From: a virus
Reading direction: 5' to 3' (one strand)
DNA: 64,000 bases
Virus record (IMG/VR): IMGVR_UViG_3300047160_036265
Of this stretch, positions 12,743 to 53,593 are shown one piece after another (within the stretch, counting starts at the first letter, position 1; every line of letters begins with the position of its first letter). The position numbers were made by a program, and so were the translations under genes. Under the pieces are notes generated by a model. That model was given only the letters and a program-made list of their open reading frames with translations. It was not told the DNA's origin and did no database searches.

Positions 12743-12835
12743 CTCGTCAGGCAGGACTCGAACCTGCAACCTGGCGGTTAAGTTAAGGTCTGTCAGGACC
12801 AACAGCCGCCTGCTCTACCATTGAGCTACTGACGA
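12743..12835 (-). tRNA. tRNA-Asn(GUU)-like with about 21-nt insertion in the anticodon arm
   Basis: Acceptor UCGUCAG/CUGACGA, D-arm GCUC-AAUGGUA-GAGC, T-arm GCAGG-UUCGAGU-CCUGC; anticodon stem GGCGG/CCGCC encloses 28 nt (CUGUUGG plus a GGUC-CUGACA-GACC hairpin). Confidence 0.5.
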
Positions 12836-24682: not shown

Positions 24683-25861
24683 TTAAGCCAAAACTTCGGT
24701 GACAACGCCCGATCCGATGGTTTTCCCACCCTCACGGATGGCGAAGTGGCTGCCCACTTCCAGGGCGATGGGCTTCTCCAGCAGAACCTCCAGGGTCGCG
24801 TTGTCGCCCGGCAGGATCATTTCGATGGGCGGCACCAGCTTCATCTCCCCGGTCACGTCCGTGGTACGGAAGAAGAACTGCGGCTTGTAGCCGTCCATGA
24901 ACGGCGTGTGCCGCCCGCCCTCTTCCTTGCTCAAGACGTAGACTTCGGACAGGAACTTGGTCTGGGGCTTGATCGTCCGTGGGGCTGCAAGCACCTGGCC
25001 CCGCTCGATCTCGTCGTTCTTGACCCCTCGCAGGAGCAAGCCGACGTTCTGGCCGGCGACCGCCTCATCAAGCGGTTGCTTGAACGCCTCGACGCTGACC
25101 ACCACGACCTCGCGCATCTCGCCCAGGCCCAGGATTTCCACCTTGCCGCCTGGCCGGATGCTGCCCTGCTCGATCTTGCCCGTCGCCACGGTGCCCCGAC
25201 CGACAATCGAGTGTACGCCTTCGACGTACATCAGGAAGGGGCGGTCCATCTTGCGCACCGGGTCCGGGATGTACGAGTCCAGGGCTTCCAGCAACTCGTT
25301 GATGCAGCGGGTGGCGTCCGGGTCGGTCGGATCGTCCAGAGCGCCCTTGGCGTTGCCACGGACCACCGGCGTCTTGTCGCCGTCGAATCCGAACTTCGTC
25401 AGAAGCTCCCTGGTTTCCATCTCGACCAGTTCGATGATTTCGGGGTCGTTGACCAGATCGACCTTGTTGATGAACACCACGATGTCAGGCACACCGACCT
25501 GACGGGCCAGCAGAATATGCTCCTTGGTCTGCGGCATCGGGCCGTCCGCAGCCGACAGCAGCAAGATCGCCCCGTCCATCTGCGCCGCACCCGTAATCAT
25601 GTTCTTCACATAATCGGCGTGTCCGGGGCAATCGACGTGGGCGTAGTGCCGCTTGGCGGTTTCGTACTGGACGTGGCTGGTGATGATGGTGACGGTTTTA
25701 TTTTCGTCACGCACCGTGCCACCCTTGGCGATGTCCTTGTAGCTTTTGACTTTCGCCAAGCCCTTCTTGGCCTGAACCGCCAGGATCGCAGCGGTCAGGG
25801 TCGTCTTCCCGTGGTCGATGTGACCAATCGTTCCGACGTTGACGTGAATCTTCTCCGACAT
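24683..25861 (-). CDS. tuf: translation elongation factor Tu
   Basis: [17 protein letters not shown] (G1), [49 protein letters not shown] (G3), NKVD (G4); full-length 392-aa EF-Tu with domains 2 and 3. Confidence 0.9.
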
Positions 25862-25973
25862 CTAACACTCCCTGGTTGCCTACAGCAACCTATTAGGGGT
25901 TTCGGCACCCTTCCGCCCAATCGTTTGATCTTTTTACCACAACGAGTGAAGCCAGAGCGGTTGGGAACCAAAG

Positions 25974-26044
25974 AGCCACCCCTGGGAATCGGACCCAGGT
26001 TTTCGCCTTACGAGAGCGACGTATTACCACTATACGAGGGTGGC
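25974..26044 (-). tRNA. tRNA-Thr(CGU)
   Basis: Acceptor GCCACCC/GGGUGGC, anticodon arm UCGCU-CUCGUAA-GGCGA, T-loop GGUCCGAUUCC. Confidence 0.65.
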
Positions 26045-26048
26045 AAAG

Positions 26049-26121
26049 TCGGGGCGGCGGGAGTTGAACCCGCAGCTTCCAGTACCCCATACTGGCGGCT
26101 TACCATCAAGCCTTCGCCCCG
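26049..26121 (-). tRNA. tRNA-Pro(GGG)
   Basis: Acceptor CGGGGCG/CGCCCCG, D-arm GGCU-UGAUGGUA-AGCC, anticodon arm CCAGU-AUGGGGU-ACUGG, T-arm GCGGG-UUCAACU-CCCGC. Confidence 0.6.
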
Positions 26122-26126
26122 ATTAG

Positions 26127-26200
26127 CAGGTGCGGCAGGAGTTGAACCTGCAACCATCCGCTTTGGAGACGGACGCTCTGCCGGGTTGAGCTACGCACCT
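26127..26200 (-). tRNA. tRNA-Trp(CCA)
   Basis: Acceptor AGGUGCG/CGCACCU, D-arm GCUC-AACCCGGCA-GAGC, anticodon arm UCCGU-CUCCAAA-GCGGA, T-arm GCAGG-UUCAACU-CCUGC. Confidence 0.7.
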
Positions 26201-26625
26201 AGAAGATAACGATACCAGCCGAGAGCCTTGGCTGTCCGTTTTCGATGACAGTTTGAACAGCGCACTTCACATTTGGCGATTTCGTCTAAGACCTCGCTCC
26301 AAGGACTTCCATGTGTCACCAGATATGAAACCGCCGCCCGCTTCTCGCCACGCACATGATCGCATTCCAAGGTGACTGGATCGCTTTCGCCGCAGTCAAT
26401 ACACGGATGCTCCAACAGATAGGCCCAATACTTCAGGCCATTTTCGACTGCTTTTTTTCTGGCTGACGCCTTAACCTTGTTGCGACGACCTTCATCCTCA
26501 TGATACATGGTCGTCCAATAAAGACGGCGACAACCTCGGCAAACCCATCTTCGACCTGTGGGGGTTTTCTCGTATTCCTCAAGGGACTTGGGGGTGCCGC
26601 ATTTCTTGCATATTCGAGTTTCCAT
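26191..26625 (-). CDS. HNH endonuclease
   Basis: CKKCG..CRGC Zn ribbon followed by ECDHVRGEK..CEVRCSNCHRKRT (HNH/His-Me finger); abuts the tRNA cluster. Confidence 0.55.
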   Translation of the reverse strand: METRICKKCGTPKSLEEYEKTPTGRRWVCRGCRRLYWTTMYHEDEGRRNKVKASARKKAVENGLKYWAYLLEHPCIDCGESDPVTLECDHVRGEKRAAVSYLVTHGSPWSEVLDEIAKCEVRCSNCHRKRTAKALGWYRYLLGA

Positions 26626-26663
26626 ACCCTATTATAGTGGTGCAAGCGGCAAAAATTACACCA

Positions 26664-26870
26664 CTATTGCCTGGGCATGAAGCCCAGGTATCCCTCGCCC
26701 CCACAGGCATCGCAGACGCCTGCGGGGGCATCATATTTCTTGGTCTGCCAGTTGTACATGCCCTCCTCCTGCTGGCCGAAGCCGCCGCAGCGCTCGCACA
26801 AGAACCGCCGGGCCTCGATCTTGCCGGTCGTTTCCCATTGCTGGAGCAGGGCTGGAGTAATCTCGATCAT
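26664..26870 (-). CDS. hypothetical Zn-ribbon protein
   Basis: CERCGGFG..CDACGGEG cysteine pairs. Confidence 0.4.
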   Translation of the reverse strand: MIEITPALLQQWETTGKIEARRFLCERCGGFGQQEEGMYNWQTKKYDAPAGVCDACGGEGYLGFMPRQ

Positions 26871-27166
26871 GACTTCAAACGGAACCCCAACATGGCGAAT
26901 GCCTCGCGCTGGCTCTTGGCCTCGCCCTGGGTGGAGGGCGACTTGATGCGGTCGGCCAGGCTGTTACGCCAGGCAAACCCGTGCGCCGTCTTGGTGACTT
27001 CTCCGTAATAGGTGCCGTCCTTGAAAATCTTCTGCGTCTTGCCTTCCTCCCGGACTTCGATGGACATGGAAACCTCGTTACTGGTCATCAATGCTGCGAT
27101 ACCCTGGGCATCGCCAGCCGTGGAAACACTCAAGCAGCAAGCCAGGCCGCAGACGCAAATTTCCAA
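26867..27166 (-). CDS. hypothetical protein
   Basis: 99-aa ORF with a hydrophobic N-terminus. Confidence 0.4.
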   Translation of the reverse strand: MEICVCGLACCLSVSTAGDAQGIAALMTSNEVSMSIEVREEGKTQKIFKDGTYYGEVTKTAHGFAWRNSLADRIKSPSTQGEAKSQREAFAMLGFRLKS

Positions 27167-27291
27167 ACTCGCGTCGGGGGATTTTCATGAGGTATTGGTC
27201 CGGTTCGCCGGTTTGCGGGCTTACCCAGGCCACATAGACAAATTTTGGCCCGATCTTCATGACTTGGTGCATTTGTCTGCCCCTCAATCAG

Positions 27292-27364
27292 TGCGGCATA
27301 CGGGAATTGAACCCGTCCCCTCACGTTGGCAACGTGATATACTCAGCCAATATACGAATGCCGC
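27292..27364 (-). tRNA. tRNA-Gly(GCC)
   Basis: Acceptor GCGGCAU/AUGCCGC, anticodon loop UUGCCAA, T-arm GACGGGUUCAAUUCCCGUA; a near-identical copy lies at 31540-31612. Confidence 0.7.
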
Positions 27365-27420
27365 AGTTCGGCAGGAGAAAAAATCGCTTAGAGTTGGCTT
27401 TAGCATTTGTGATCGGCTTG

Positions 27421-33812: not shown

Positions 33813-34396
33813 ACACGAGTCTCACTCTCGTTCACCGGCCCAGGTTCTTTCGCCACCTGAGCCGGGTCGTGCTTCGACCGATTACGGCTCAGGGCTTGCG
33901 GGGGTATTATCCCCACAACGACGTTCGGCGGCGGGCTTGCTACCCGTCGCGCACGTCGGGCGCTGTGGCTGATGCCACTGCGCCTGTTTGCCGGTAATCT
34001 GCACGAAGTACGACACGTTCATTGTCTCCTTTACCGGCGTGACCCCTTTGGTCACTACCGGCTGGAGCCGAGTTGCCTCGGCCTTGCAAGTCTCGCTGCG
34101 GGAACCACTCCCGCTATGTACTAGATACCTGAGCCGCCAAAACGGTCAGGATTTTTTCGGAAAAAACAGGTGAGGCCCTTTCGCGCCGCCCACTCTTTCG
34201 AGTTGCCCTAGCTCCTTTCGGAGACGGGGCCTTTCGCCTACGTCGCCCCGTTTTGAGCGGGTTCGACTTCGGCGTGGTGTCGGCTTGCGATTAGCGGGCC
34301 TCACCTGTTTCTACGGCATCGGTTTGTTTTTTTCCTGAGCCTCGGTCTATCGTTTCCATAGCCTTGGCCGACAGGTTTTACCTCTGCCGCAGAAGT
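33813..34396 (-). ncRNA. large structured noncoding region, candidate ncRNA (identity unknown)
   Basis: About 585 nt with no ORF over 60 aa, many UUCG/GNRA-type hairpins (cctttcgg, ctcctttcggag, gacttcggcg), and a long-range pair aaaacaggtgaggccc (about 34160) with gggcctcacctgtt (about 34297). Confidence 0.3.
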
Positions 34397-34466
34397 TGCC
34401 GGGGCTGGAATTGCACCAGCGTCTTCAGGTTATGAGCCTGATAAGGTAACTACTCCTCCACCCGGC
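34397..34466 (-). tRNA. tRNA-Met(CAU) (or Ile2), G55-type T-loop
   Basis: Acceptor GCCGGGU/CCCCGGC, anticodon arm UCAGG-CUCAUAA-CCUGA, T-arm GCUGG-UGCAAUU-CCAGC. Confidence 0.55.
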
Positions 34467-34559
34467 GATCAGTATGGCTGTTTCCAGCCGTCTATCGTAT
34501 AGTAGTCTACCACCCCCGATTTTGTCAACACCTTTTTGAGTTTTTTCCAGATTCTTTTT

Positions 34560-36383
34560 TCAGGCCCGCCAGCCCTCAATCTTCGTGACGGTGAAGGACT
34601 CGCCCTGGCGGTGGCCTTCTCCTTCCACCCCGTCCCAAGCATCATACGCCAGCAGCCCCCGGCACGTCAAGTCCAAATAATGGCCGGTCTTGAACCCGAT
34701 GGTCAAAAAGGTGATCTCCCGCCCGCCAACCGTGTGGTGCCGCCCCGTGGCAATCAACCCCCGGAATCGTCTCCCGTCGAAGTAGCAATTTGGCATAAAC
34801 CTATTACTGATCCAGTAGTTGCGCTTACGGTACTGATGCCAGCCGTCGCCCTGGGTCTTGTCCGGCTTGCTGTTGGTGAGACGGTCGCCCTCCAGGTGCC
34901 AGAATCCGCCCTGGCCGAAGTTTTCCAGCTTCAGGCCCTCGTACTTGGCCTCCTGAACGTGGACCCAGGGCCGGTACATGCTGGCGGCGTGGTTGAGGGC
35001 GGCGAGCCAGAACTTCTGCCGCTGGCGGGTCTTTTCGTAGGCCAACGCCCAGACCAGATAGCCGTAGGCGGTCGCGTGGGCCTTGCAAAAGCTGTAGAGG
35101 GCGTAGTAGGACAACTCCTTGACGATCTTGGGCCAGTCCGGGAGATACTGGATGCGGACGGCGAAATCCTTGATGGTGTTCTCGTCCTCCTTGGCGAAAC
35201 CCCGGCGGTAAACCTCGGCCTCACTCTCGGAGCAGATCAGCAACTCCCGAATTAGGTTGATCCCGTCCTCATCAAAGACGAGATGCCCCTTGGTGGAGCG
35301 GGTTTGCCGCCAGGTTTCCAGGGCATCGAGCTTTCTGCCGTCAGCAGATGGCACGGGCCGAATCAGGGCCAGGGCGGTAATGATGTCGGAGCGGCAGCGG
35401 ACGCTCAGTGCCCCGCACAGCTTTCGCTGGGCCGGGGATTCGGCAAAGGTCACGCCCCAGGTGTCGCCCTCATTAAAGAGGCGCACCGTGTCGTCGTCCT
35501 CTTCCGGGTAGTCGAGCAAGGGGCGGGTAGCCAATGCGGTCCACTGCGCCAGGCCCCGGTTGCAGAGCAGGTCGATCTTGTGGAGGCCGGCGGCTTCTAC
35601 CTCGTCCTTGTCCAGATGGATATGGTCGTCTTTTATTTTCAGATCGGGAGGCACATGGTCATCGAATATTACGATGCCGCCGCAGTGCTGGGCATTGAGG
35701 CGAACTGTTCCTTCCAGTTCTCCGGCACGCCGCAAGATGGCTTCGGCCTTGTCGCCAGCAATCTTCTCCAGGTCGAAGCCACGGGGCAGGAAGTGATGAA
35801 AGCCAGCTTCACGGAGAGCCTGGCGGATGGCGGAATCCCGGCGGTAGCGAATCTTGGTGGAGATGCGGGCGACACGCCCAGGGTACTTTTCCTTGACCCG
35901 CTCGATCACTTCATCCCGGCGGTTATAAGGGAAGTCGATGTCGATGTCGGGCAAATCCTGGCGGCGCTCGTGCATGAAGCGGGCGAGGCAGAAACCGTGC
36001 TGGATGGGGTCGAAATCGGTGATACCCATGAGGTAGCAGACCAAGCTGCTGCCCGCCGACCCACGGGTGATATGCGGGATGTCATCGGCCAGGTCGAGTA
36101 TTTCCCGGACCTGGGAGAAGACATTTGCAAAACCGAATCGCTGGATCAACTCCAGTTCATGCTTTAGCCGACTTTCGTATTCAGGACCGGGCGGGAGTCG
36201 GCGGCGGAACGGCAACATGAGCCGGACTCCATTTTCACTGGCTGTTCTTCCAGAACTTCCGGGCGTGATGGACCTTTGCCAGCGCCTTGCCCACGTCCGC
36301 AAGGGCCTTGGCCTCATCGGGCTTGGCCCAGGCGAACGGCTTCTTATTCGGGGTTTCCTCGTACTCCCTTTGCAGGTACTCAT
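34560..36383 (-). CDS. dnaE: DNA polymerase III alpha (DnaE)-like catalytic fragment lacking the PHP domain
   Basis: GSAGSSLVCYLMGITDFDP, LPDIDIDFPYNRRDEVIERVKEKYG, HCGGIVIF match DnaE palm/fingers; the N-terminal 80 aa are Ser/Arg/Pro-rich instead of a PHP domain, and the C-terminus stops after the fingers. Confidence 0.65.
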   Translation of the reverse strand: MSTCKGSTRKPRIRSRSPGPSPMRPRPLRTWARRWQRSITPGSSGRTASENGVRLMLPFRRRLPPGPEYESRLKHELELIQRFGFANVFSQVREILDLADDIPHITRGSAGSSLVCYLMGITDFDPIQHGFCLARFMHERRQDLPDIDIDFPYNRRDEVIERVKEKYPGRVARISTKIRYRRDSAIRQALREAGFHHFLPRGFDLEKIAGDKAEAILRRAGELEGTVRLNAQHCGGIVIFDDHVPPDLKIKDDHIHLDKDEVEAAGLHKIDLLCNRGLAQWTALATRPLLDYPEEDDDTVRLFNEGDTWGVTFAESPAQRKLCGALSVRCRSDIITALALIRPVPSADGRKLDALETWRQTRSTKGHLVFDEDGINLIRELLICSESEAEVYRRGFAKEDENTIKDFAVRIQYLPDWPKIVKELSYYALYSFCKAHATAYGYLVWALAYEKTRQRQKFWLAALNHAASMYRPWVHVQEAKYEGLKLENFGQGGFWHLEGDRLTNSKPDKTQGDGWHQYRKRNYWISNRFMPNCYFDGRRFRGLIATGRHHTVGGREITFLTIGFKTGHYLDLTCRGLLAYDAWDGVEGEGHRQGESFTVTKIEGWRA

Positions 36384-37597: not shown

Positions 37598-37927
37598 TTA
37601 GTACCCGCCACGGCGACCCCCGCCCCCGGAGCGACGACCACCGCCGCCGCCGCCCCCACCGCCCCCGCCGCCACGGTCTTCACGAGGCCGGGCCTCATTG
37701 ACCGTGAGGGTACGGCCATCCACCTGGGTGCCGTTGAGGCCGCTGATGGCGGCGGACGCCTCGGAGTCACTGGTCATTTCCACGAAGCCGAAGCCCTTGG
37801 ACTTGCCAGTATCACGGTCCATGATGACCTGGGCGGACTGGACCGTGCCGTACTCCGCAAAGGTGTTTCGCAGGTCGGCGTCTGTGGTTCCATACGACAG
37901 GTTGCCGACATACAGTTTCTTACCCAC
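37598..37927 (-). CDS. RRM-domain glycine-rich RNA-binding protein
   Basis: RNP2 KLYVGNL and RNP1 KGFGFVEM with spacing typical of cyanobacterial/plant glycine-rich RBPs; C-terminal GGGGGGGGGGGGGRRSGGGGRRGGY. Confidence 0.7.
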   Translation of the reverse strand: MGKKLYVGNLSYGTTDADLRNTFAEYGTVQSAQVIMDRDTGKSKGFGFVEMTSDSEASAAISGLNGTQVDGRTLTVNEARPREDRGGGGGGGGGGGGRRSGGGGRRGGY

Positions 37928-38626: not shown

Positions 38627-39001
38627 CTACTTGCTCTCCTTCTTGGCTCCATATTTTGAGCGGGCTTGTTTACGGTCGGAAACCTGGGCGGCGTCCCGGT
38701 TGCCACGGATAATGTGGTACTTGACGCCTGGCAGGTCACGGACGCGACCACCCCGGATCAGGACAATGGAGTGTTCCTGAAGGTTGTGGCCCTCGCCAGG
38801 AATATAGGCGGTGACTTCGAGGCCGTTGGAGAGGCGCACACGGGCCACCTTCCGCTGTGCCGAGTTGGGCTTCTTCGGCGTGCGGATGCCGGTGAACGTG
38901 ATGACGCCCTTCAGTTGCGGACGGCCCTGAAGGGAACGCACTTTGTTCTGCCGCTTCTGAGGGACACGGGGCTTGCGAACAAGCTGATTGATGGTCGGCA
39001 T
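38627..39001 (-). CDS. rpsL: ribosomal protein uS12 (S12)
   Basis: [80 protein letters not shown] is near-identical in pattern to bacterial RpsL. Confidence 0.85.
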
Positions 39002-39517: not shown

Positions 39518-39704
39518 TCTTATTTCCCTGCGACTGGCCCCTCTCTGCGGGTCAAGTCAGGGGCATGAAACCGTTTCACCTGTTTGAATAACAGGCTTAT
39601 CCAGAGATTGTCAGTCGCCGGTCCCAGCCGAGTCCCTTCAGGCGAACCCGTTGGGACACTAGGCTGGTTTTGTGGCCCCCGGCGAACCAGGGGCTTTTTG
39701 GGAG

Positions 39705-40422: not shown

Positions 40423-40444
40423 CCTTGCTCCTTGAAAATAAAAG

Positions 40445-40548
40445 TGCGGCGGGATGGATTTGAACCACCGACCTACGGGCTAATAACCCGTTGCTCCTTG
40501 AACACTCGCCCCGAAGGGTAGGTGTTGTCTTCGCTGAGCTACCGCCGC
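40445..40548 (-). tRNA. tRNA with about 28-nt hairpin insertion in the D-loop; anticodon loop UUAUUAG
   Basis: Acceptor GCGGCGG/CCGCCGC, T-arm GGUGG-UUCAAAU-CCAUC; D-stem GCUC/GAGC encloses 39 nt including CCC-UUCG-GGG; anticodon arm ACGGG-UUAUUAG-CCCGU. Confidence 0.45.
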
Positions 40549-51569: not shown

Positions 51570-53483
51570 TTAGGCGATCTTGTACTTCGCCCGCAGGACT
51601 TCCAGCGGCGGCACTTCCTTGGCCTCGCCCTGCTCCTGCTCGCCCAGGCCCTCGCAGTCAGCGATGATGTTGACCAGCTTCTCCGACCAGCCGGACAGCA
51701 GGTGGGTCTGCTTGTCGGTCGGCTTCACCTGAGCCTGGCCGTGGCCGTTCAGGTTGATGCTGTACACCTTGCACTGCGCGTTGACCTTCTGGCGGTAGTC
51801 GGCGCACATCGACTGCACGCTCATCCCCTTGAAGTGGTCCTTGCCGCCGTGGCACAGGTTGGCGTTCCCCTGCGTGTAGCAGCAGAAGTCACTCATGATG
51901 ATGATGCGGTCAACGTGGAGCTTCTTGTCCGTGATGTCCTTGAGGCCCCACCACAGACCCGTCTCCGTGCCGCCGCCCACACCACCGCCGTAGCGGTTGC
52001 TGCCCAGGCCACCGTGGGTCTTCGGGTCGTCGCTCTGGGCGCACTTCTTCACCTGCTCGTGGATCGCCAGGCAGGTGTCAGCCTGGCTGAACGGCACCCA
52101 CACCAGCATGTCACCGAACACGCCGATCTTCACGCGACGGCCCAGCTTCTTCGCCAGGACGGCCATCAGCATGTTGCCGGCGTCGGCAACCACCAGCCGG
52201 GACTTGGCGCTCGTGGCGCAGCCCGTGGCCGAACCGGAGTTGTCCGTCAGGACCACCGTGATGCCCGGCAAGTCGGCAATGTTGTTGCACGCCTGGTCCA
52301 GCTTCAGGTCGATCACCGTCTTGGCTTCCGTCGTGGAAACCTCGTTCTTGGCGGTGAACCACCGGAACGGAAGCTGCACAGAGTCTTCCTTGCCCTGAAG
52401 CTTCTCGTAGACCTTGCTCCACAGAGCATCGCTGATCTTGGCCTGCTCGAAGTTGCGCAGGTTGCGGGTAAGGGCCATCTCGCCCATCATCGGGATGCAC
52501 AGTTCCCAGACTTCCTTGCTGGAACCCAGGTGCGACAGCACGTTCTCCCAGGTCAGACCGGCCAGGCGCAGGAAGTCCGGGGTCACGCCCAAGGCCGGGA
52601 GGCCCTGCGCAGCCACGTCCTTCTTGTCGAGGCCGAAGAACTTCTTCCGGGCCTGGAGCAGCGGCGACGAGTTACCGTCCACCACGCCGTTCACCAGGAA
52701 GTCGAACAGGCTCTTGGACACGGGCCAGCCCACGTCCTTGTTCTGCTCGTGTTCGCCCTGCTCGTCCTGCACCTTCACAGTGACGGTGCTGATGCTGCCG
52801 GCCTTGGCCAGCTTCTTGTGCTTGGAGCCACGGAGCATCTTCAGCAGGTCGGCGTAGTTCGGGCGCTCCGTGGTGTCGTACTTCAGGATTTCGTATTCCG
52901 AGAACCGGGCGATGGCGGCGCACAGCGCCTTGCGCAGCGCGTGCGGCAGCGCACCCTTGTGGCGTGGCTTCGAGCGCTGGTACAGGTGGCGGAAGGCCGC
53001 AAACACCTGGAGCGGTTCATCGGCACGGTCCATGATCCGTGGGCCGTACTTGGCCAGGAACGGACGGGTCTTCTCGTTCGCCGCAGCGACCACCAGCATC
53101 ATCTGCGGGGTGGTGCGCAGGCGCAGGCCCTCCGTCTTGTCGCGTGCCCAGGACGCGATAATGAACAAGTCTTCCGGGTGATCGCCCTTGGCGACCGCCT
53201 GAGCCGTCTCGATGACTTCCTGGGCCTGCTCGGTCAAGCCGACCTCGTTGACGATCTTGGACTCGATGCGCCCGACCGTGGTAAGCTCCGTGATGAAAGC
53301 TTCATAGTCACGGTTGGAGTCGTAATACTTCGGCTCGTTGAAGAACCCGCCGCCGATGGTGTGCATCAGCTTCACGGCAGGGTCGTTGATCTCGTAGGCA
53401 ACGCCTGGAACATGCTTGTGGGCCACCTGCTCCTCAGCAGCAGCCTTGTGGACATCCTTCTTCTCGAAAGCGAACTTGGACAT
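51570..53483 (-). CDS. rsr: Ro60/Rsr-like protein (TROVE + vWA domains)
   Basis: Start at MSKFAFEK, preceded by GGAGAGGAGAG. IGGGFFNEPKYY resembles the Ro60 GSEGGTYY segment; helical-repeat N-terminal region; C-terminal vWA with MIDAS ITVVLTDNSGSATG; about 640 aa. Confidence 0.5.
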   Translation of the reverse strand: MSKFAFEKKDVHKAAAEEQVAHKHVPGVAYEINDPAVKLMHTIGGGFFNEPKYYDSNRDYEAFITELTTVGRIESKIVNEVGLTEQAQEVIETAQAVAKGDHPEDLFIIASWARDKTEGLRLRTTPQMMLVVAAANEKTRPFLAKYGPRIMDRADEPLQVFAAFRHLYQRSKPRHKGALPHALRKALCAAIARFSEYEILKYDTTERPNYADLLKMLRGSKHKKLAKAGSISTVTVKVQDEQGEHEQNKDVGWPVSKSLFDFLVNGVVDGNSSPLLQARKKFFGLDKKDVAAQGLPALGVTPDFLRLAGLTWENVLSHLGSSKEVWELCIPMMGEMALTRNLRNFEQAKISDALWSKVYEKLQGKEDSVQLPFRWFTAKNEVSTTEAKTVIDLKLDQACNNIADLPGITVVLTDNSGSATGCATSAKSRLVVADAGNMLMAVLAKKLGRRVKIGVFGDMLVWVPFSQADTCLAIHEQVKKCAQSDDPKTHGGLGSNRYGGGVGGGTETGLWWGLKDITDKKLHVDRIIIMSDFCCYTQGNANLCHGGKDHFKGMSVQSMCADYRQKVNAQCKVYSINLNGHGQAQVKPTDKQTHLLSGWSEKLVNIIADCEGLGEQEQGEAKEVPPLEVLRAKYKIA

Positions 53484-53568
53484 GATGACTCTCCTCTCCA
53501 ACTCAGCAGGGACCAGAGATAATATCGGCAGGAGTCCCGGCCCATAACAATAGGGCCGGTAAAACGGT

Positions 53569-53593
53569 GAAGTAACCCCCACCTGCACCTTCC
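53569..53593. repeat. repeat family A copy upstream of rsr
   Basis: gaagtaacccccacctgcaccttcc. Confidence 0.55.

Follow-up and report, generated by a model that had tools for sequence, protein, structure and literature searches.

What is encoded in the ~585 nucleotides (nt) that separate a tRNA-Met gene from an intrinsic terminator in a fragment of a huge phage genome, where no sizeable open reading frame (ORF) is found? The fragment is a 64,000-nt stretch of virus record IMGVR_UViG_3300047160_036265 in IMG/VR (the window, by which we always mean this whole stretch). It resembles part of a huge (soil) phage. Its long ORFs are all on the minus strand, as is every one of its 48 transfer RNA (tRNA) genes, which were predicted with ARAGORN and confirmed with Rfam. 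A first-pass annotation, made from the letters alone, proposed a large structured non-coding RNA (ncRNA) at this site, and the proposal is supported by two further lineages that carry the region, by 18 base pairs changed on both sides, and by a conserved promoter and terminator. Complex conserved ncRNAs longer than ~400 nt are rare in bacteria and phages; examples are the ribosomal RNAs, RNase P RNA, group I and II introns, OLE, GOLLD and ROOL. Our preferred reading, held with moderate confidence, is that the region encodes a stand-alone, multi-domain structured ncRNA of ~585 nt (~620 nt with the terminator), transcribed as the 3' part of a short minus-strand unit. This RNA most likely represents a new class in the niche occupied by GOLLD and ROOL.

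A gene-free gap and its predicted transcription unit

The 655 nt from 33740 to 34394 form the largest stretch of the window that holds neither a tRNA gene nor a minus-strand ORF of 70 or more amino acids. The longest minus-strand ORFs in this gap have 57, 56, 52 and 49 amino acids, in agreement with the earlier statement that none on the gene strand exceeds 60. No ORF within the RNA region has a match in Pfam or PHROG. An independent assembly of the same phage (L016, an ENA contig with 99.98% identity) was likewise left empty here by the gene caller.

The region, with a guanine plus cytosine (GC) content of 59%, folds far more stably than shuffled versions of itself. The minimum free energy of the minus-strand RNA is -313 kcal/mol, as compared with -232 +/- 4.6 kcal/mol for dinucleotide shuffles (z = -17.7); the plus strand of the same region reaches z = -11. 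In a scan of all 19 gaps of the window, the RNA gap is a clear outlier (z ~ -12, with the runner-up at -6.3). All sub-domains, in all three lineages, have z values between -4 and -14, and the consensus fold shows several multistem junctions. The dense set of tetraloop hairpins reported from the first pass is present, but what looked TTCG-like on the plus strand corresponds to GAAA and GCAA (GNRA) loops on the RNA strand. Two other short, gene-free gaps on the minus strand also fold better than their shuffles (26646-26866, z = -4.8; 39518-39703, z = -5.4).

Positions 33775-34528 of the minus strand make up a single predicted transcription unit. Read in its own sense, DnaE is followed by the promoter, tRNA-Met, the ~585-nt region, the terminator, tRNA-Cys and the remaining tRNA array. 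The flanking terminator and tRNA-Met(CAU) of the first-pass annotation are real, but the strand has to be corrected to minus, and the placement upstream of the DnaE fragment (which has no PHP domain) is reversed: the region lies downstream of both DnaE and tRNA-Met and ends at the terminator. The sigma-70-like promoter is located 31 nt upstream of tRNA-Met, and both of its hexamers are kept in the alignment with the homologous contigs L018 and L019, with a spacer that varies. A leader hairpin follows, and it is kept with a different stem in each lineage (GACGA/UCGUC in L018, GGCAA/UUGCC in L019). The terminator is the only strong terminator-like site on the minus strand in the 8.9 kb of tRNA array that were scanned (25800-34700), and its hairpin and U-run are kept in L018 with a changed stem sequence. 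The first-pass annotation held that an empty Rfam search together with a lack of transcription would speak against an RNA gene. The Rfam search is indeed empty for the RNA, and the conserved promoter and terminator argue, as far as sequence can, that the region is transcribed.

The tRNA-Met has a C1xA72 mismatch, and its 3' end is followed by CUU instead of an encoded CCA. In bacterial tRNA-fMet, the C1xA72 mismatch is the mark of the initiator, and we therefore read this tRNA-Met as initiator-like. Transcripts of tRNA genes that encode no CCA need 3' endonucleolytic processing and CCA addition.

Beyond the terminator, a motif (CTCTTTGACAATTTG) is conserved in all three lineages. It contains TTGACA and falls short of a full sigma-70 promoter; its role could be that of a phage-specific promoter, of a site for a regulator or of a processing signal. 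The minus strand carries another copy, with 2 mismatches, at 30611-30625, 30 nt after a tRNA-Arg gene and ~40 nt before a weak promoter-like site at 30575.

Homologues, consensus structure and covariation

The RNA is known from three lineages, represented by the window, by L018 and by L019 with L020. They were found by translating stop-free stretches of the RNA into pseudo-protein and scanning six codon-degenerate patterns at once. Among metagenome contigs, four (L017 to L020) were the only homologues found. L017 is identical to the window and L018 is 89.5% identical; L019 and L020, which seem not to differ from one another over the RNA, have 76.8% identity to the window. Every homologue has the RNA flanked by a tRNA-Met-type gene on one side and, on the other, by the same tRNA run (tRNA-Cys present or absent, then His, Asp and Pro).

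Searches elsewhere returned no further member. The same pattern scan found no homologue in viral and genome contigs. Exact 18-20-mers of the RNA retrieved nothing from viral contigs, other than two chance matches of one 19-mer in AT-rich coding DNA, and a conserved 20-mer had no match in genome contigs. A 21-mer of the flanking tRNA-Cys retrieved 11 viral loci, none of which has the RNA. There was no homologue by blastn in the phage and plasmid collections, no spurious ORF over a homologous RNA among 5.8 billion predicted proteins, and no additional match to a covariance model of domains 1-2 over the collected loci. An anchor search with the large protein encoded upstream in L018 gave one match, on an uninformative contig of 1.1 kb.

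Relatives traced through DnaE were similarly negative. A protein that is identical to the DnaE fragment over the matched stretch is recorded on a 669,797-bp contig. The top match in the phage collection is LR756508.1, a 484-kb uncultured phage with 39% amino acid identity, where the order is DnaE, a small ORF, tRNA-Met and an EF-G-like GTPase gene, without such an RNA. Contigs L002-L004, whose DnaE is 86% identical, are collinear with the window at ~83% nucleotide identity only to the end of DnaE; a different gene follows, and there the contigs stop. P0014, P0042 and P0043 (DnaE 55-57% identical) have unrelated neighbourhoods and gave no nhmmer or covariance model match.

The consensus fold, computed with RNAalifold on the three sequences, has 191 pairs, and 95.6% of the cells form standard pairs. 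Covariation was counted on this structure, which derives from the same related sequences: 18 pairs are changed on both sides, and these fall in nine or more separate helices. When the 3' partners are slid by 1-3 columns, 34-44% of cells pair and 0-2 double changes are seen; none of 500 column shuffles reaches the observed covariation values. Examples of compensatory change include CCGAG/CUCGG to CCAGG/CCUGG, GUGACC/GGUCAC to GAGGCC/GGCUUC, CCCG/CGGG to CCUG/CAGG, and CUCC/GGAG to CCCC/GGGG. The GAAA loops carried by covarying stems are themselves unchanged.

The RNA comprises three domains followed by a hairpin and the terminator (Table 1). Domain 1 consists of a long hairpin with bulges and a GAAA loop, together with an A-rich linker, and is 86-88% identical to its homologues; the first bases past the tRNA are already paired in its helix. 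Domain 2 is closed by a helix that joins 34309-34296 with 34178-34165. This is the long-range complementary pair seen in the first pass, and it is real: it encloses 145 nt, has 14 base pairs (bp) extendable to 17, and is invariant in all homologues. Domain 2 has several GAAA loops and compensatory C-G to U-A changes in two hairpins, and its identity to the homologues is 93%, as compared with 79% at the nucleotide level for the neighbouring DnaE gene. Overall, conservation is concentrated in the 5' 232 nt (86-93% identical); the 3' part is 65-77% identical with helices kept. In domain 3 the sequence varies (73-77% identical to L019) and the structure is kept, with pairs changed on both sides in each of helices 16, 17, 18, 20, 21, 22 and 25. 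Because the RNA is known from only three related lineages, this structural model is provisional.

One hairpin of domain 2 (34270-34249, minus strand) carries an invariant 7-nt loop, CUCAAAA, on a covarying stem (CCCG/CGGG to CCUG/CAGG). The loop is built like an anticodon loop and is one base off the CUCAUAA loop of the adjacent tRNA-Met.

The pattern of relatedness is not uniform along the element. Over the 5' 232 nt, L018 and L019 form the closer pair (95-96% identical) and the window stands apart. From domain 3 onward it is L019 that stands apart (73-79%), and the window and L018 share 89-94% identity; the breakpoint lies near 34165-34115. The U6-CCG-A6 stretch coincides with this change in which homologues resemble each other. 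Such mosaic relatedness points to recombination or gene conversion within the RNA element, and cleavage at the adjacent tRNA gene may have been the trigger.

Table 1. Coordinates of the RNA locus and of other features of the window (z, folding energy relative to shuffles)
Feature	Positions	Strand	Evidence or detail
Sigma-70-like promoter, TTGACA-N18-TACTAT	34499-34528	minus	consensus scan, 10 of 12
Leader hairpin, GGCUG-GAAA-CAGCC	34476-34489	minus	between promoter and tRNA
tRNA-Met(CAU)	34396-34467	minus	ARAGORN; Rfam 56.9 bits; first acceptor pair flagged non-canonical
RNA domain 1	34310-34395	minus	5' end paired, UCUGCGGCA / UGCCGUAGA; consensus fold; z = -5.1
RNA domain 2, multi-helix, 145 nt	34165-34309	minus	z = -7.6 to -9.9
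U6-CCG-A6 stretch, possible hinge or weak internal terminator	34152-34166	minus	directly after domain-2 closing helix; conserved in all three lineages
RNA domain 3, ~250 nt of hairpins	33884-34137	minus	closed by GCGGCUCAGG / CCUGAGCCGU (strands A, B)
44-46-codon frame	GUG 34016 (or AUG 34022, two lineages) to UAA 33884-33882	minus	GGAG at 34029-34026
Hairpin CCGGCUCAGG-loop(GAAA)-CCUGGGCCGG (strands C, D)	33835-33865	minus	consensus fold
Intrinsic terminator	33775-33812	minus	14-bp stem, 3-nt loop, U7; hairpin and U-run at 33812-33782
Conserved motif CTCTTTGACAATTTG	33753-33767	minus	between terminator and tRNA-Cys (33739-33655)
tRNA-Cys, unusual	33655-33739	minus	85 nt, long variable arm
tRNA-Gln, unusual	12743-12835	minus	93 nt
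RRM_1 RNA-binding protein	37598-37927	minus	E = 5e-24
Ribosomal protein S12	38627-39001	minus	
tRNA-Asn, unusual	40444-40512	minus	anticodon AUU
Two tandem paralogous elements	49395-49945	minus	~270 nt each, in second ORF-free stretch
Ro60/TROVE protein	51570-53588	minus	two tRNA-Arg genes immediately downstream

Known RNA families and rival explanations

Is the RNA a member of a known family? At the gathering score, Rfam 15 finds only tRNAs in the whole window. With permissive filters and E <= 10, applied to the locus and both homologues, the matches are tRNAs and sub-threshold chance hits. None of the candidates named in the first-pass annotation (RNase P-like RNA, 6S, a group I intron remnant) is supported. 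No RNase P family model matches at E <= 10 in any of the three lineages, and no Rfam match at this threshold indicates 6S RNA. The same holds for group I and II introns (Intron_gpI, E <= 10), and the tRNA-Met is complete in the window and in L018. ARAGORN finds no tmRNA in the window or the homologous loci and Rfam has no tmRNA match, consistent with the lack of a tmRNA signature noted by eye in the first pass. OLE has no Rfam support. A T-box or riboswitch leader has no Rfam match within the RNA either; a competing terminator helix can be drawn, and no sensing domain was identified. An origin-like region, also suggested earlier, is unsupported: cumulative GC skew falls monotonically across the region, which has 59% GC, no iterons or tandem repeats, and only short two-copy repeats. 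Nor is there a direct repeat of the tRNA end, as an element integrated at the tRNA 3' end would leave.

The closest parallels, GOLLD and ROOL, are ornate RNAs of large size that phages and prophages encode, often near tRNA islands (PMC12286853; PMC5737381). Recent work has shown that each assembles into RNA-only nanocages, and neither RNA has a known function (PMC12286853). Like GOLLD, the RNA described here is large, multi-domain and GNRA-rich, has two halves unequal in conservation, and is phage-encoded beside tRNA genes, in this case after a Met-tRNA, as is GOLLD env-38 (PMC12286853). Unlike GOLLD, many members of which exceed 800 nt, it is ~585-620 nt long, and its 5' part is conserved, whereas GOLLD conserves the 3' region (PMC12286853). 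With ROOL it shares phage encoding, proximity to tRNAs and the lack of a known protein partner or function, and the ~585 nt between tRNA and terminator are close to the ROOL average of 581 nt (PMC5737381). However, ROOL spans several phyla, and this RNA occurs in three related soil phage lineages only. Neither the Rfam GOLLD model nor the ROOL model matches in any of the three lineages at E <= 10. Because niche, size and style are shared, while the covariance models do not match and the polarity is opposite to that of GOLLD, the RNA is, by analogy, best described as GOLLD- and ROOL-like in genomic habit, with membership of neither family detectable. A search of the literature turned up no account of an RNA like this one in huge phages.

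Several points weigh against a stand-alone ncRNA. The distribution is narrow, with three closely related lineages only. Three related sequences make the covariation statistics thin, and their kinship inflates the shuffle test. The two long-range closing helices are invariant and so untouched by covariation. Recent recombination, not selection, could account in part for how similar the 5' 232 nt are. A search for additional conserved or covarying helices in the three sequences gave no convincing pseudoknot, kissing interaction or self-complementary loops of the multimer type. The repeated helix strands permit alternative folds, and a cis-regulatory role is a rival or an added role, which we rank below a stand-alone ncRNA. 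Finally, all three lineages keep a short frame open up to one common stop codon, and a Shine-Dalgarno-like GGAG and the GUG are conserved.

The repeated strands are the basis of the rival that survives best, a cis-acting leader whose terminator would control whether transcription from the tRNA-Met promoter continues into the array of ~40 tRNAs that follows. We consider this unlikely, yet it deserves to be set out. Strands A (34137-34128) and C (33865-33856) share the 9-mer CGGCUCAGG, and the complement of this 9-mer recurs, nearly unchanged, in strands B (33893-33884), D (33844-33835) and the 3' strand of the terminator (T3'). In the consensus fold, A:B closes domain 3, and C:D and the terminator form as well. 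With the 5' strand of the terminator (T5'), five similar strands would allow the mutually exclusive pairings A:B, B:C, C:D, D:T5' and T5':T3'. In such a switch, closure of domain 3 by A:B would let C:D and the terminator form, and the RNA would be released; were A unavailable, B:C would form, D would pair with the 5' strand of the terminator, and transcription would continue. The near-identity of the strands fits this model, as does the behaviour of the 3' part, which prefers B:C when folded alone and, before T3' is included, forms the D:T5' helix in both the window and L018. In L018, two substitutions (A to G, G to A) are shared by D and T3', and D:T5' stays at 8 bp. Moreover, no complete sigma-70-like promoter lies between the terminator and tRNA-Cys, and the next promoter-like site on the minus strand is the one at 30575.

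However, in a single sequence chance alone would give a 7-bp match of D with T5' about half the time, and its recurrence at the same place in L018 has p ~ 0.06 only, by a rough estimate. The full-length fold strongly favours the terminator over the alternative, and an unrecognised phage promoter may include the conserved TTGACA-containing motif that follows the terminator. The ~600 nt of conserved multi-domain structure far exceed what known attenuators need. Like attenuators and T-box leaders, the RNA would be a structured leader closed off by an intrinsic terminator; an anti-terminator helix is possible, and the context is tRNA-related. Unlike them, the RNA is ~3 times as long as known leaders and is followed by a tRNA array, not a protein-coding gene. 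It has no identified ligand or sensing element and matches no T-box or riboswitch model, and the evidence for a switch is suggestive only.

Could the region instead be, at least in part, a small protein gene? The 44-46-codon ORF would then be translated and the structure around it would belong to the mRNA or its untranslated regions. This is a little less likely than the leader. Besides the conserved stop codon and start signals, the sole indel within the frame is 6 nt and keeps the frame. The ratio of nonsynonymous to synonymous change (dN/dS) can be read both ways: 0.40-0.73 in this frame is lower than the 1.0-1.6 of the +1 frame, and values of 0.40-0.73 also count against coding. Substitutions between the window and L019 fall 9, 12 and 14 times on the three codon positions, with no clear excess at the third, and the N-terminal half is barely conserved as protein. 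Changes instead compensate RNA helices; across helix 25, for example, a change from UGU to CAU (Cys to His) is balanced by one from GCA to AUG. An open 44-codon frame carries little weight, because nearly all frames on both strands stay open for 50-87 codons in this GC-rich region. The most conserved part of the RNA, domains 1-2, lies outside the ORF. The product has no Pfam or PHROG match, the 5.8 billion predicted proteins hold no homologue, and no gene was called in L016.

Two independent RNAs are less probable still. One would be a module of ~235 nt (domains 1-2, ending at the helix and U6 at 34165-34160) and the other a module of ~385 nt, from domain 3 to the terminator. A conserved U6 directly follows the domain-2 closing helix, and both conservation and the pattern of relatedness shift at this point. 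But a 'loop' of 145 nt is atypical of an intrinsic terminator and the terminator scan calls none there, no promoter-like site precedes the second module, and both modules co-occur in all three lineages. The least likely rival is a very divergent catalytic or housekeeping RNA (RNase P RNA, a remnant of a tRNA-fMet group I intron, tmRNA or 6S), to which the at least 48 tRNA genes in need of processing (for RNase P) and the PDDEXK_5 gene adjoining tRNA-Met in L019, of the same family as the intron-encoded I-Ssp6803I (PMC1995217), would lend some appeal, but the Rfam (E <= 10) and ARAGORN searches of the three sequences find none of these classes, the RNA follows an intact tRNA and does not interrupt it, and no P4-type conserved strands are seen by eye.

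Proposed maturation and role, with other features of the window

How might a stand-alone ncRNA of this kind be made? In the proposed pathway, host RNase P would cut at the 5' end of tRNA-Met, and a 3' endonuclease would cut just past the discriminator base, the latter proposed because no CCA is encoded. This second cut would give the large RNA a defined 5' end, which would immediately be locked into the domain-1 helix, and the terminator would set the 3' end. At the least, the tRNA would then be a handle for processing, through which the large RNA gains a free 5' end. The tRNA-Met of L019, which keeps its acceptor and T arms, together with the RNA, despite a 21-nt insertion, fits such a releasing role. 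Once released, the RNA may act in trans as a folded scaffold; the many invariant GAAA loops on covarying stems would fit a scaffold with tertiary or quaternary contacts. Its target is probably the translation and tRNA machinery imported by the phage, which includes at least 48 tRNAs, EF-Tu, aminoacyl-tRNA synthetases and S12.

More tentatively, and with rather less confidence than we place in the ncRNA itself, the RNA may be the founding member of an undescribed class of ornate phage RNAs of ~600 nt, unrelated to GOLLD and ROOL in sequence and fold but found in the same niche. Its repeated strands might enable either a switch that gates the ~40-tRNA array or strand-exchange assembly into particles that engage translation. 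If so, a third unrelated large RNA would suggest that the tRNA-island niche of phages selects for a function and not a lineage. It would also offer an independent system for finding that function, one in which the RNA is physically joined to an initiator tRNA. The locus opens two ideas: that tRNA processing releases such RNAs, and that a large RNA element switches on an imported tRNA set.

The 21-nt insertion (UUUGGCCUGACAGCCAUCAAG) in the tRNA-Met of L019 and L020 lies in the anticodon loop, between C34 and A35 (L019 3845-3939), and Rfam does not recognise the interrupted tRNA. Directly upstream, on the other strand, is a PD-(D/E)XK endonuclease gene (PDDEXK_5, E = 1e-32; L019 3322-3717, and likewise in L020). 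I-Ssp6803I is a PD-(D/E)XK homing endonuclease encoded in a group I intron of cyanobacterial tRNA-fMet (PMC1995217). The L019 gene could be a free-standing homing endonuclease that targets the tRNA-fMet gene, with the insertion protecting the site.

The interval between DnaE and the tRNA-Met/RNA unit (34468-34560) is a variable cassette that is empty in the window. In L018 (1-1516) it holds a gene for a large Gly/Asn-rich protein and a DUF1579 gene; across the relatives the Gly/Asn-rich gene is intact or decayed. In L019 (2011-3844) it holds a further ORF and the endonuclease gene.

Elsewhere, the window encodes EF-Tu, two aminoacyl-tRNA synthetases, a Ro/TROVE protein, an NAD-dependent ligase, a MoxR ATPase, ribosomal protein S12 and an RRM protein. 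The RRM_1, S12 and Ro60/TROVE proteins are possible partners for structured RNAs, possibly in a Y-RNA-like system. Three of the tRNA genes are unusual (Table 1), and the tRNA-Asn with anticodon AUU has a counterpart in L002-L004.

A second ORF-free stretch of the window contains the two tandem paralogous elements, ~2 kb downstream of the Ro/TROVE gene in the sense of the minus strand. Part of it (49131-49613) is the runner-up in the gap scan, with z = -6.3, and 49501-50000 has five GNRA hairpins. The elements have no Rfam match (top score 21 bits, as compared with a gathering score of 59). Each begins with a GUAAACCAGCC-GNRA hairpin and ends in a GC-rich hairpin, and the two share the blocks CCUUAAACCCCC, GUCGCAC, AGCUCGUCA and CACUACCCC. 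They are a candidate second ncRNA pair of this phage.

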